Source: an uncultured virus (IMG/VR IMGVR_UViG_3300025071_000009) (taxonomy: Duplodnaviria > Heunggongvirae > Uroviricota > Caudoviricetes). Taken from it: DNA of 64,000 nucleotides. The position numbers were made by a program, and so were the translations under genes. Shown piece after piece: positions 23,391 through 26,176 of this stretch; positions within the stretch are counted from its first letter, which is position 1; each line of letters begins with the position of its first letter. The notes beneath the pieces were generated by a model that saw only the letters and a list, made by a program, of their open reading frames with translations, did no database searches and was not told where the DNA came from. The DNA lies in the IMG/VR virus record IMGVR_UViG_3300025071_000009, one strand, 5' to 3'.

Positions 23391-23585
23391 TTAATCCTTG
23401 TTCTTCTTGATCCGTGATCTCCATTTTTTACGTGCGAGTCTCTTTTTCTCAGAGTCAGAAGTAAAATGTCTGTGATCTCGGACTTCTTGAATGATTCCAA
23501 GTTTCTTGCACTTTTTGGTAAATCGTTTGATGAATTTTTCCATCGTCTCGCCTTTGCGAGGTTTCATTTTGTAATTGGTAGCCAT
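23391..23585 (-). CDS. rpsU: Phage-encoded ribosomal protein bS21
   Basis: MATNYKMKPRKGETMEKFIKRFTKKCKKLGIIQEVRDHRHFTSDSEKKRLARKKW fits the bS21 pattern (E..E..L/IKRF.K.....G...E.R....F...SE.KR). TAATG overlap with the upstream gene. Confidence 0.85.
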   Translation of the reverse strand: MATNYKMKPRKGETMEKFIKRFTKKCKKLGIIQEVRDHRHFTSDSEKKRLARKKWRSRIKKNKD

Positions 23586-24010
23586 TATTTTCCCTTTGCT
23601 AATTTTGACCAAATAGCTGAAGACATTCCGAAAGCTGAGATATCAACGCCGGGATCATTTGGTGCAACACCCTCAAGGGCTTTTGAACCATGACCTCCGG
23701 AAGATTTGCCTGCTGCTTGTTGACTCAAAGGCTTTGTACCTTCAAACAAGTCCACACCATTGTATGCATCGGACCCGATTGAGTCAATCATTCTTCGTCG
23801 GTGTTCTTTCAGTTTTCTTTGCTGTGCTTCTTGATCTATTTGTGGTTTTTGATAAGTGGGTTGAGTTCGGGTTTCGACAATACGTTGACCACCTGTTCCC
23901 TTGACAACCTCTGAAATGATTCCAGAGAGAACTCCTTCTTCAAAAATTACCTCTTTGATACACTCTTTGATGAGTGGCTTTAAGGTTTTTCTTAATTGTT
24001 CTTTGTTCAT
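23585..24010 (-). CDS. Head-associated hypothetical protein
   Basis: Abuts the protease gene. Its N-terminus MNKEQLRKTLKPLIKECIKEVIFEE resembles the repeated leader motif. Confidence 0.6.
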   Translation of the reverse strand: MNKEQLRKTLKPLIKECIKEVIFEEGVLSGIISEVVKGTGGQRIVETRTQPTYQKPQIDQEAQQRKLKEHRRRMIDSIGSDAYNGVDLFEGTKPLSQQAAGKSSGGHGSKALEGVAPNDPGVDISAFGMSSAIWSKLAKGK

Positions 24011-24634
24011 TTAATCTCCAAGAATCTTTTTAAATAGATTGTCAATATTGTTTTCTTTTTGTTCTCGCAACTTTGTCGAGAATCTAGTTGGCTTTCTAGA
24101 GCTTTCGCCCGGATAAACATAGGCATCTGGGGTTGATGGTTCGGACACGATATCAAAGCAAATTAGTTGGAAGTCTTCTTCTACAACTGTTGTTCCCATA
24201 GATTCTCGAACAGATCCAAGTCCACGAGATGAAATCCCAAGCTTAACACCAGCATTGATGAGGTCCTTTAGGATTCTACCGCTAGGAGTGTCTAAGACCT
24301 TGATCTTGCCCATTACGTCCTTGCCTTCCCACCAACAGTCTGTGACCATGTGAGAAACGTTCTTAAGGTTAATTACGGAGTCATCAGGGTGATCTAATTC
24401 ACCACACGCTCTGTTGTCTTTAACGATAGCCATGTAATTATCCATCTCTCTCTTGAGAACTTTGTGTGGATACTTACGACCGTTTCCATTCTTTTTGTCC
24501 GCAGTCTGAATCCGACCAGTCAAGTAGACCGCGCCATCTTCAACAACTTCTCTCTTTTCTCTTTCAGTTAAGAGATCAAGGCACCTTCCATCCGGACAAA
24601 GCGCATGGAACTCTCTTAGTAATTGTTTAGACAT
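24011..24634 (-). CDS. gp21: Prohead core protease, T4 gp21-like
   Basis: NGNGRKYP, GELDHP (catalytic His), GISSRGLGS (catalytic Ser), FDIVSEPS. Start MSKQLLRE at 24634. Confidence 0.95.
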   Translation of the reverse strand: MSKQLLREFHALCPDGRCLDLLTEREKREVVEDGAVYLTGRIQTADKKNGNGRKYPHKVLKREMDNYMAIVKDNRACGELDHPDDSVINLKNVSHMVTDCWWEGKDVMGKIKVLDTPSGRILKDLINAGVKLGISSRGLGSVRESMGTTVVEEDFQLICFDIVSEPSTPDAYVYPGESSRKPTRFSTKLREQKENNIDNLFKKILGD

Positions 24635-24650
24635 TCTTCTCTCCATTAAT

Positions 24651-24706
24651 AAAAAAGGTGGGCAGAGCTTAGCTCCACCCTTAGCAGGCGTTACCTGCCC
24701 GAGCTA
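24651..24706 (-). promoter_or_regulatory. Attenuator-like alternative hairpins with U6 tract
   Basis: Terminator-like AAGGGTGG/CCACCTTT with inner GAGC/GCTC followed by T6. Competing pairings TAGCTC/GAGCTA and GGGCAG/CTGCCC, plus hairpin GCAGG-TAACG-CCTGC. Confidence 0.55.
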
Positions 24707-24763
24707 CGATCCGCTGCAACAGCGACGGACGGGTTGTAAAACCCAGCGCTTAATCATCGACAT
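24704..24763 (-). CDS. Unannotated 19-aa peptide MSMIKRWVLQPVRRCCSGS
   Basis: Near-perfect SD AGGAGGTGAT directly before the ATG at 24763. TAG at 24704-24706. Same frame as the downstream protease. Confidence 0.65.
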   Translation of the reverse strand: MSMIKRWVLQPVRRCCSGS

Positions 24764-25079
24764 AATCACCTCCTGATCTCGACGATAGCCTTAGTCCAAA
24801 ATCATCGACTAAGACCGAAATTAAATAAGATGTACCAGCTGAAACGCAGCCAAGAACAAATGCATTCCCGAAAGAATACTCGAAACTAAATAGTTCAGTA
24901 AATGGGGAAAGGAGCATTAAAAACCAACCTACATGAAAGCCTACACACAATGGACAGTTCCACAGAGTGTTCCACTTCTTTGTATAATCCTTCTTGGGGC
25001 GGATGTCTTCGAAGATTTTACCATGCACAATCATGAAAGTCATACCGTATGCTGCTAAAATAAAATTTAAAAGTTCCAA
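24750..25079 (-). CDS. Small membrane protein with CxxC (DUF1360-like pattern)
   Basis: Three hydrophobic segments and LWNCPLCVGFHVGW. Confidence 0.65.
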   Translation of the reverse strand: MELLNFILAAYGMTFMIVHGKIFEDIRPKKDYTKKWNTLWNCPLCVGFHVGWFLMLLSPFTELFSFEYSFGNAFVLGCVSAGTSYLISVLVDDFGLRLSSRSGGDYVDD

Positions 25080-25094: not shown

Positions 25095-25829
25095 TCAATC
25101 GTCGTATTCATCTGTAAAGCTCTTGAAGGCGGCTTGGTCTAAAAACTTATTAAACTCTCTCTCGCTCATGAATCCAGAGTCAATTACTTCATCAAGGAAT
25201 TCCATATGGTTCCCTTCATACATCGCCATCGACTGCTCATAAACTTGTGGGTTCTTGTGATCGAAACTAAAGTCGGTAGCATTGTCCGCATCATCCACTA
25301 GCACATCACAGTCATCGGCTGGATCGGGTGTTGTATTATCATAGTCAAAAGTATCGTTACCAGCAGGAGTCGTTACCTTATCAAACGTTTGAGTATTCTT
25401 CTCGAATGAATCCCACTTGATAACGGCGTCTTTTTTTGATCCCGAGTCCTTGTCCGATGTAAGACCAGCGTTATCATTCTTCGCTACATAAAATGCAAAC
25501 CCATAAAGGAGGGTTCCGTAGCCAACGTTTCTGTACTTCTCCGCTGTGTGAATGGCTTCCACGTGCCAAGATGGATTCTTCCCATCTGCCGTCAGGCATG
25601 GTCCACTACTTTTAAGACTTGAAATGTTTACTTGTCCTATTATTTCCAACCCAGCAATCTTCTCTGCTGCCTCTGTTCCAGGTCCTGGAGTATAGAGTGT
25701 GAACTCTGCATCGCTTTTGGGGCTGATCTCTGCTCTCAAGCAGACAACTTCATCACTTAGGCGGATGCCTCTCTTCTTTTCTTCTTTGAGAAAGCGTCTC
25801 CAGTTTTCCATTATAAGCTTTTGATTCAT
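25095..25829 (-). CDS. GNAT-like acetyltransferase with helical N-terminal leader
   Basis: VEAIHTAEKYRNVGYGTLLY matches GNAT motif A (R/QxxGxG). Start MNQKLIMENWRRFLKEE via ATGA overlap. Confidence 0.6.
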   Translation of the reverse strand: MNQKLIMENWRRFLKEEKKRGIRLSDEVVCLRAEISPKSDAEFTLYTPGPGTEAAEKIAGLEIIGQVNISSLKSSGPCLTADGKNPSWHVEAIHTAEKYRNVGYGTLLYGFAFYVAKNDNAGLTSDKDSGSKKDAVIKWDSFEKNTQTFDKVTTPAGNDTFDYDNTTPDPADDCDVLVDDADNATDFSFDHKNPQVYEQSMAMYEGNHMEFLDEVIDSGFMSEREFNKFLDQAAFKSFTDEYDD

Positions 25830-26176
25830 AAATTCCACCAGCAGTATCGTTTTCTATTTTCAAGATAGTTTTCGTCTTCGTCATTTTGGTAAGCTTCTTT
25901 TTCAAATGGAATGTTGAAATAAGCTGCGTCTCCGGCTTGACCTTTTAACAAATTCCAAGCCCACCAACCAAGATAGAGTATTGGGAAACCGATGAATCCG
26001 AGTTCGATGTATTGTTGATAGTGAATTGTTTCGTGTCTTTTTGTCGTCTCGGACATTTCATCACGAGATATAACAATCGGGCCCAAGGTAATTGCACCGA
26101 TGTTGATTGGTGCTACGTAAGACAACCAGACGGGTATCTTGCTATTCTCAATAAATAAAGGCTTTAAGTGTTTCAT
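25826..26176 (-). CDS. Small HExxH (zincin-like) protein
   Basis: AITLGP...RHETIHYQQY...IPFEKEAY. Confidence 0.65.
   Translation of the reverse strand: MKHLKPLFIENSKIPVWLSYVAPINIGAITLGPIVISRDEMSETTKRHETIHYQQYIELGFIGFPILYLGWWAWNLLKGQAGDAAYFNIPFEKEAYQNDEDENYLENRKRYCWWNL

Follow-up and report, generated by a model that had tools for sequence, protein, structure and literature searches.

The classical attenuators with the leader peptides trpL, hisL and pheL have a promoter-proximal open reading frame (ORF) of about 20 codons with a strong ribosome binding site (RBS), followed by a GC-rich hairpin and a run of U residues ahead of the cargo genes. The same layout is found around a micro-ORF in a 64 kb stretch of DNA (64,000 nucleotides (nt), called the window in the following) from the uncultured virus IMG/VR IMGVR_UViG_3300025071_000009. 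The micro-ORF codes for a peptide of 19 residues, two of them cysteines, and is located between the gene for a small membrane protein with a CxxC motif and the gene for a prohead protease. Comparison with related phages indicates that it is a genuine gene under extreme purifying selection at the amino-acid level, and its product belongs to a previously undescribed micropeptide family. An initial annotation of the window had proposed that the micro-ORF is the leader of a ribosome-mediated attenuation switch. The micro-ORF was found as proposed; the switch is not supported.

Other leader peptides act from within the ribosome. TnaC of Escherichia coli is encoded by a short ORF and has a fixed C-terminal dozen residues with Lys-Trp located 13 and 12 residues before the last one, and the micropeptide has the same arrangement. 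SecM and SpeFL are further arrest or sensor leader peptides acting in the ribosome tunnel. As with such tunnel arrest peptides, either a regulatory RNA or the next start codon lies within the footprint of a ribosome standing at the micro-ORF stop.

Small cysteine proteins are also known from virion assembly. Poxviruses and African swine fever virus (ASFV) have thiol-oxidation relays in the cytoplasm which run from a membrane-associated CxxC oxidase through a small Cys-pair protein to structural proteins. In the window, too, the gene for a CxxC membrane protein lies beside that for a tiny Cys-pair protein (CC or, in other family members, C-x3-C) in a virion-morphogenesis module, and a neighbouring structural enzyme, the protease, has a conserved Cys pair. 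The RNA after the micro-ORF resembles the intercistronic terminators and stabiliser hairpins of phage late operons in having a canonical terminator between two genes of one transcription unit. The locus finally recalls gene 60 of phage T4: it belongs to a T4-like phage, its stop codon lies beside a stable hairpin, and residues 14-29 of gp60, KKYKLQNNVRRSIKSS, align with KKWKLQPVRRCCSGS at 9 of 16 positions. These gp60 residues are described as the region contacting the exit tunnel through Tyr16, Arg24 and Ser28 (PMC5462505).

Conservation of the micro-ORF and its peptide family

All genes of the window are on the minus strand and form the structural block of a T4-like phage, with products such as the large terminase, the portal, a Gp23-type capsid protein, the sheath, a gp19-type tube protein and a baseplate protein. 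The micro-ORF and its start signals are the following.

24704..24763, minus strand: micro-ORF, ATG at 24763-24761, product MSMIKRWVLQPVRRCCSGS (19 residues, two Cys), TAG stop at 24706-24704; from the ORF list and conservation
24765..24774, minus strand: Shine-Dalgarno sequence AGGAGGTGAT of the micro-ORF, within the 3' end of the CxxC membrane ORF
24753..24786, minus strand: 8-base-pair stem enclosing the RBS and AUG of the micro-ORF (24786-24779 pairs with 24760-24753), in the minimum free energy (MFE) fold

The conservation of the peptide was studied in three samples of relatives. For the protease-anchored sample 237 relatives were confirmed via the protease alone, and the best 80, with 76-100% protease identity, were kept. 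The upstream-gene-anchored sample, found with the membrane gene and its embedded motif as anchor, comprises at least 120 stretches, which gave 107 distinct contexts with enough downstream DNA. The third sample, at least 119 viral contigs of what we call the CCSGS clade, was collected with a back-translated peptide pattern; since the invariance of the peptide is there imposed by the search pattern, this set was not counted as independent, and the independent evidence on peptide conservation consists of the first two samples only. It should be noted that the sequences are mutually related, and that the numbers of sequences given below therefore do not represent numbers of independent events.

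The peptide W-[M/V/T]-LQPVRRCCSGS-stop was found upstream of the protease in 79 of the 80 protease-anchored loci, the 80th having no upstream DNA. These loci contain 47 distinct DNA versions of the micro-ORF, and the last 11 residues are identical in all 79. Pairwise comparison of the last 11 codons gave 6472 synonymous and 0 non-synonymous codon differences. All 11 third positions vary, with an identity of 49% against 90% for the first and second positions, and changes between TCN and AGY for Ser and between CGN and AGA for Arg occur. The strong Shine-Dalgarno sequence which the initial annotation had seen inside the end of the membrane gene is indeed there. Of 126 contexts, 125 have an in-frame ATG located 2-13 codons before the Trp codon, with a purine-rich run ahead of it, and the remaining one ends at the contig edge. 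The stem around the RBS and AUG has compensatory changes at stem positions 4, 5 and 7 (19 distinct versions in the clade of the window). For the clade the motif can be written [K/R]-W-x-L-Q-P-V-R-R-C-C-S-G-S-stop.

The end of the micro-ORF is unusual as well. The base following the stop codon is C in 96 of 119 relatives, but in only 6 of the 50 genes of the window. TAA, the stop codon of 34 of these 50 genes, is used in 17 of 96 relatives. At the third base past the stop (24701, minus strand), which is not part of the hairpin stem, all 119 relatives have C; the inspected forms in which the ORF reads through also have C there, as a third codon position.

The gene is kept nearly unchanged in hundreds of uncultured phages of a widespread lineage, the marine T4-like phages of about 185 kb; it is single-copy in three of three relatives of this size, and the region is present in many public marine DNA sequencing runs. 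The peptide pattern is unmatched in prokaryotes (one genome from each of 185,579 species). In cultured phages, tblastn with the peptide gave only noise with E ≥ 2, the locus DNA has no relatives, the upstream membrane protein has no match, and the matches of the protease are below 60% identity. A literature search for the peptide motif QPVRRCC gave no match, and for CCSGS the matches listed were unrelated.

Outside the clade the peptide is more variable. A micro-ORF was found in 98 of the 107 upstream-gene-anchored contexts, and the other 9 have a different next gene. When 56 diverse members were aligned, only one Cys and one Gly were invariant, and the Trp, the Val and one Arg were kept in at least 90%; the family-wide motif thus reduces to W...V-R-x-C-[C/K]-x-G-[S/C]. 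The size ranges from 16 to 36 amino acids (aa), and the N-terminus varies in both length and sequence. The Cys pair is retained in all 97 classified contexts: CC-x-G-S in 75, C-K-x-G-C in 15, CC-x-G-A in 4 and CC-x-G-K in 3, one of the last three having a third Cys. Whenever the second Cys is lost at position +1, a Cys appears at +4 (15 of 15 cases).

Among the 97 classified members three different architectures are seen. In 23 members, as in the window, the stop is followed by a hairpin. In 36 there is a stop and no hairpin; of the 33 of these which could be measured, 26 have their next AUG at a distance of 1-5 nt from the stop. In 37 the usual stop is replaced by a sense codon and the ORF runs from 2 to about 60 residues further, to end at or over the next start codon; here the hairpin is translated, often as R-V-A-P-A. 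Because a change in the stem of such read-through forms also alters amino acids, the RNA structure is taken as the conserved feature.

The gene which follows codes for a protease-like N-terminus in 74 of 122 contexts and for a P-loop protein or another protein in the rest. About one third of the relatives have an extra gene between the micro-ORF hairpin and the protease, often for a 248-aa P-loop protein (GPPSVGKST; e.g., at L064:1756-2502), and in other relatives the slot is occupied by a homologue of a 247-aa ORF which in the window lies upstream of the membrane gene; the gene order around the micro-ORF has therefore been shuffled. In one locus (L284) the micro-ORF overlaps the genes on both sides. 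In another (L229) it runs past CCKGS into a hydrophobic stretch (MFSLVLIISQ...), perhaps a membrane segment naturally fused to the peptide.

The promoter-like motif and the RNA after the stop

Upstream of the micro-ORF the initial annotation had noted the motif ACTATTTA, and downstream of it a series of hairpins ending in a terminator. The elements on which the following is based are these.

24887..24894, minus strand: ACTATTTA, promoter-like motif within the codons T-E-L-F of the membrane gene; from strand bias and conservation
7344, 9914, 13392, 23384, 24887, 28158, 34229, 35029, 38796, 39881, 40324, 40510 and 56871, minus strand: start coordinates of the ACTATTTA copies, from a motif scan
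24683..24699, minus strand: hairpin 1 (GGCAGG-UAACG-CCUGCU), which starts 5 nt past the micro-ORF stop; from covariation
24651..24680, minus strand: hairpin 2 and T6, intrinsic terminator, with a 9-pair stem at 24680-24660 and T6 at 24656-24651

The 13 copies of ACTATTTA in the window are all on the coding strand and none is on the opposite one; 2.40 +/- 1.56 copies are expected, and 0 of 100 shuffles reach 13. Most of the copies are located 10-45 nt upstream of gene starts, mainly of structural genes, and one lies 11 nt upstream of a tRNA-Ala. In three relatives of about 185 kb there are 26 copies of AACTATTTA on the coding strand and 0 on the opposite strand. Of 114 relatives, 113 retain the copy at 24894-24887 in the spelling GAA-CTA-TTT, invariant even at its synonymous positions, although the neighbouring Thr codon uses all four bases in its third position. 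This copy is found 131-171 nt upstream of the Trp codon of the peptide in 113 of 122 contexts. The promoters of T4 late genes have the motif TATAAATA, which is absent from the coding strand here; the window has one copy on the wrong strand, with 2.7 expected. A literature search for ACTATTTA as a phage promoter gave nothing relevant among the matches listed.

We read ACTATTTA as a putative promoter because of its strand bias and its position. The next downstream copy is at least 639 nt away in the relatives, usually about 1300 nt, and in the window it is at 23391. Since there is no copy between 24887 and 23391, the protease gene, a 141-aa ORF and the bS21 gene presumably have no promoter of their own, and they would be transcribed through the region with the hairpins and the terminator. 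The order of promoter-like motif, micro-ORF, terminator and protease-bS21 genes is the one which the initial annotation had proposed.

The region is rich in GC, 0.58 over 24650-24749 compared to 0.36-0.48 in the neighbouring 100-nt windows. A 151-nt region folds with -57.3 kcal/mol (z -2.9; 1 of 200 shuffles is as stable), and its MFE structure includes the three pairings that had been named, GGGTT/AACCC, CGCTG/CAGCG and GCAGG/CCTGC. Only the last of them, the stem of hairpin 1, is recovered when relatives are compared. RNAalifold finds hairpin 1 and nothing else, both in 119 short regions and in 113 full leaders extending from the promoter motif to the next start; the other two pairings, which were not recovered, are at most specific to the lineage. 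Rfam has no family at the locus: with the gathering thresholds only tRNA is found in the search, and with E ≤ 10 two chance snoRNA matches are added.

Hairpin 1 folds with -10.2 kcal/mol, and 0 of 200 shuffles are as stable. Three core pairs were followed in the 119 CCSGS-clade sequences: the first is G-C in 95, A-U in 13 and G-U in 11, the second C-G in 114, G-C in 3 and U-A in 2, and the third G-C in 104, C-G in 13 and A-U in 2. No cell is unpaired in these three, and slid controls pair in at most 55% of the cells. The covariation score is 0.242 compared to 0.107 in shuffles, none of 500 reaching 0.242. The distance from the stop is 5 nt in every one of the 119 relatives, the spacer being found in 28 different versions of unchanged length; as there are only about five junction positions the lack of indels is only mildly surprising, and we put no weight on it. 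The idea that hairpin 1 is a generic, repeated terminator was rejected, the motif occurring 1-3 times per genome of about 185 kb, with the extra copy that was examined lying inside a coding region. Hairpin 1 is also what sets the locus apart from late-operon terminators: it is extra, specific to the locus and in fixed register after the stop, and it is kept inside the extended frame in the 37 relatives which read on. As a conserved RNA structure it could be a 3'-end stabiliser or a ribosome pause.

Hairpin 2 is present where the terminator had been proposed and has the canonical form of a Rho-independent terminator, a GC-rich stem-loop followed directly by a U-run. Its 9 pairs fold with -14.9 kcal/mol, and the two hairpins together constitute the MFE structure of the region after the stop, -25.1 kcal/mol. 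When the 5' arm of hairpin 1 is removed, hairpin 2 still folds with -14.9 kcal/mol, and a ribosome at the micro-ORF stop can therefore not block the terminator in the window. What follows hairpin 1 differs among the 119 relatives: a U-tract in 50, a second hairpin with U-tract and with compensatory stem variants in 24, and neither in 45. Some form of terminator between the micro-ORF and the genes is thus found in the window and in 74 of 119 members of the clade, and is absent from the other 45 and from the 36 hairpin-less members of the wider family. In four public runs labelled as RNA, with contigs of relatives of 85-95% similarity, some contigs span the terminator and others stop at 24680; as this is also where the sequence of hairpin 2 diverges, the contig ends are uninformative on transcript 3' ends.

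Neighbouring genes of the head module

The genes on the two sides of the micro-ORF are the following.

24750..25079, minus strand: gene for a small CxxC (CPLC) membrane protein, DUF1360-like, stop TAA at 24752-24750; ORF of 97-109 aa, likely start ATG 25043 (97 aa)
24011..24634 (ORF to 24646), minus strand: prohead protease of the T4 gp21 type; Peptidase_S77, E 5.3e-33; phrog_207
23391..24010, minus strand: 141-aa ORF in the scaffold position and the bS21 gene (23391-23612); Ribosomal_S21, E 2e-11

The membrane protein has no match in Pfam or PHROG, and the DUF1360 (PF07098) hidden Markov model does not match it even at E ≤ 10. The likeness to DUF1360 comes from a feature search in the ESM-Atlas, where the protein is placed beside DUF1360 clusters (score 0.93, 225 of 256 features) in which 14-50% of the members carry DUF1360; the listed literature on DUF1360 was uninformative. 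All 56 relatives which were aligned have the CxxC pair. The end of this gene lies at most 75 nt from the Trp codon of the peptide in 112 of 126 contexts, and the gene was found nearby in all five of the exceptions that were tested.

The protease matches the Pfam model Peptidase_S77 with 114.6 bits (cut-off 27). Judged from the N-termini of relatives, translation probably starts at ATG 24634 (MSKQLL...). The N-terminal segment ahead of the Peptidase_S77 domain has a conserved C-x4-C motif at 24596-24613 (minus strand), LCPDGRC in the window and LCEGGVC or KCDDRGC in relatives, which has been lost in at least one lineage. The gene for bS21, encoded by the phage itself, forms a presumably promoter-less block with the protease gene and the 141-aa ORF. 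Two ORFs are located just ahead of the membrane gene: the 247-aa ORF (25095-25838, minus strand), which has a weak match, E 0.009 and below the cut-off, to a GNAT-type acetyltransferase, and a 116-aa ORF (25826-26176, minus strand), which has an HExxH motif and matches phrog_15610 ('protease').

Possible functions of the peptide

The reading which we favour, and to which we assign a probability of roughly 0.4, is that the peptide itself would be the selected product and work via its two thiols, with the terminator metering transcription into the protease gene, the scaffold-position ORF and the bS21 gene. The free peptide would act in trans, either by binding a metal or by thiol-disulfide exchange. 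Its most likely partner would be another Cys-pair protein of the head module; the candidates are the CPxC membrane protein encoded just upstream and the N-terminus of the protease with its C-x4-C motif. The RNA after the stop would have a separate job in the window, hairpin 2 and T6 being a plain, probably leaky, intrinsic terminator which reduces transcription from the ACTATTTA promoter into the three downstream genes. Since this would lower the transcription of the protease gene, the peptide would be in excess over the protease. We favour this reading because the second Cys can relocate from +1 to +4 and two thiols are nevertheless always preserved, because the peptide is kept whichever RNA element or gene follows it, and because the CPxC membrane gene is so closely linked. 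That the peptide might be a thiol-bearing partner of the CxxC protein had been offered in the initial annotation as the alternative to a switch, and the retention of two Cys throughout the family fits such a putative partnership better than the switch.

Several observations weigh against a free peptide. Within the clade it does not vary, while its supposed partner in the membrane does, with only 44-77% of residues identical to those of the first sequence in alignment A2; for this reason a very conserved host target, or the ribosome, fits better than a phage partner in co-evolution. At least one lineage keeps the CC of the peptide and lacks the C-x4-C of the protease; a Cys4 site shared by protease and peptide is thereby ruled out as a universal feature. 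A Pfam scan of 49 window proteins found no thioredoxin, glutaredoxin or Erv-type flavin sulfhydryl oxidase. The locus differs from the viral relays in having no Erv/ALR flavin oxidase or glutaredoxin among these scanned proteins, a membrane protein which is DUF1360-like and a bacterial host. Finally, the size of 16-36 aa, the variable N-terminus and fixed C-terminus, the promoter-proximal position and the atypical stop context would suit a cis-regulatory leader at least as well.

The main competitor, possible and only somewhat less likely in our judgement, hypothesizes that the peptide acts in cis as a nascent-chain arrest or sensor peptide. The sequence ...W-x-LQPVRRCCSGS would stall the ribosome at the end of the ORF or close to it and thereby gate the synthesis of the protease; a ligand which reacts with thiols, a metal or the ribosome's own state could be the trigger. 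A ribosome paused in this way would keep the hairpin 5 nt downstream melted, so that termination is avoided where a U-tract follows, or it would occupy the start of the next gene. The conservation is specific to residues in the way this model demands, the C-terminal 11-13 being fixed and the N-terminus free, and the micro-ORF is the first complete ORF past the conserved promoter-like motif. The register of hairpin 1 is constant in all 119 relatives, and about 16 nt separate the end of its 5' arm from the codon in the P site of the terminating ribosome; where the hairpin is lacking, the next AUG falls within the footprint, 1-5 nt past the stop, in 26 of 33 forms. A stop codon followed by C is weak by E. 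coli data, and this is the context in 96 of 119 relatives. The Lys-Trp dipeptide of TnaC and the likeness to gp60 point in the same direction. For gp60, however, 71 of 20000 shuffles score as well for the best of 26 variants, and 3343 of 20000 for the variant of the window itself, and there is a look-elsewhere cost as the similarity was found by recall. A motif in contact with the tunnel would not be expected to let its second Cys move from +1 to +4 and so retain two thiols, as is seen in 15 of 15 cases. Moreover, 37 of 97 family members have a sense codon for the stop, 45 of 119 clade relatives have the hairpin and no U-tract, and the terminator of the window, hairpin 2, is beyond the reach of the ribosome and unaffected by masking of hairpin 1. 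Unlike TnaC-type peptides, moreover, the micropeptide has no sequence homology to known ones, a two-Cys motif which relocates, and about one third of its family reading past the usual stop. A more specific version, which we consider more doubtful still, proposes that the two-thiol peptide reads redox, metal or ribosome state in the exit tunnel, pauses the ribosome and so times or doses the protease, with a logic of tunnel contact in common with the gene 60 signal; sensing of the ribosome state is suggested by the presence of the phage's own bS21 in the same transcription unit.

The remaining models act through the RNA or the reading frame, and all are far less credible. That the peptide is autoregulatory, a basic, Trp-containing molecule which binds hairpin 1 of its own mRNA, in the way small hairpins are bound by arginine-rich peptides, and tunes its stability or read-through, is very improbable: a 15-nt hairpin with a GC stem of 5 base pairs and a pentaloop does directly adjoin a gene for a small basic peptide, and the motif is unique in the genomes, but the peptide is unchanged when the loop is wholly different, e.g., AGAGAGA, and 36 of 97 family members have no hairpin. 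Still lower we place the classical attenuator of the initial annotation, in which occupancy of the Arg-Arg-Cys-Cys codons, set by the supply of charged tRNA, selects between antiterminator and terminator. The sequence of elements, from the promoter through the short ORF and the terminator to the genes, would suit it, and the antiterminator pairings can be formed in the window. Among the 24 relatives with a second hairpin they are kept in only 3 (TAGCTC/GAGCTA) and 1 (GGGCAG/CTGCCC), however, and 95 of 119 relatives have no second hairpin at all, nor do 36 of 97 wider-family micro-ORFs have any hairpin. With RNAalifold recovering hairpin 1 only, an MFE structure which is simply hairpin 1 and hairpin 2, and a terminator intact after removal of the 5' arm of hairpin 1, no conserved alternative structure is left for a switch. 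Sensing by the Arg and Cys codons is not supported either, as these switch freely among synonyms, including CGN and AGA, and the Leu, Gln, Pro, Val, Ser and Gly residues are equally fixed; a leader sensing starvation would show the opposite of a fixed peptide with free codons. It is the peptide sequence that is conserved here and not the codon identity as in trpL, hisL or pheL, there is no conserved antiterminator, many family members lack the terminator, and the cargo consists of head-assembly and ribosomal-protein genes (Peptidase_S77, Ribosomal_S21) which are unlinked to the supply of Cys or Arg. The least likely model of all postulates a recoding signal in the style of T4 gene 60, where the stop is bypassed, read through or frameshifted and the peptide ends up as the N-terminal part of the next protein or as the C-terminal part of the membrane protein. 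In the window the frame stays open past the TAG for 19 codons (24647-24703, minus strand) into the ATG of the protease ORF at 24646, so that read-through would fuse the micropeptide to the protease ORF, and the stop, the hairpin and the gp60-like peptide recall the gene 60 cassette. But the next start is in frame 0, 1 and 2 in 48, 47 and 27 of 122 contexts, and the second codon of the next gene is a Ser codon of the same family as the take-off Ser codon in 42, a Ser codon of the other family in 14 and no Ser codon in 66. Each copy has its own RBS and ATG, and a frameshift fusion to the membrane protein was rejected because the frame offset to the membrane ORF differs between lineages. Gene 60 differs further: matched take-off and landing codons and a resumed ORF are lacking here, the stop lies 5 nt before the hairpin and not inside it, the peptide signal is C-terminal and not 17-32 residues back, and the similarity is statistically insecure.

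On balance the reading of a free two-thiol peptide acting in trans is placed slightly ahead of the nascent-chain arrest or sensor peptide, and the two are not mutually exclusive. Genes of this size are missed by gene callers, and the micro-ORF was unannotated here; it is nevertheless among the most strongly conserved coding sequences of its lineage of marine T4-like phages of about 185 kb. For the same uncultured lineage ACTATTTA is a candidate promoter motif, useful in annotating its transcription units. If the peptide acts in trans, it would point to a so far unrecognised step in head assembly or in the control of the protease which depends on thiols or a metal. An action in cis would make it a new peptide of the arrest or sensor kind, the first one tied to phage morphogenesis genes.

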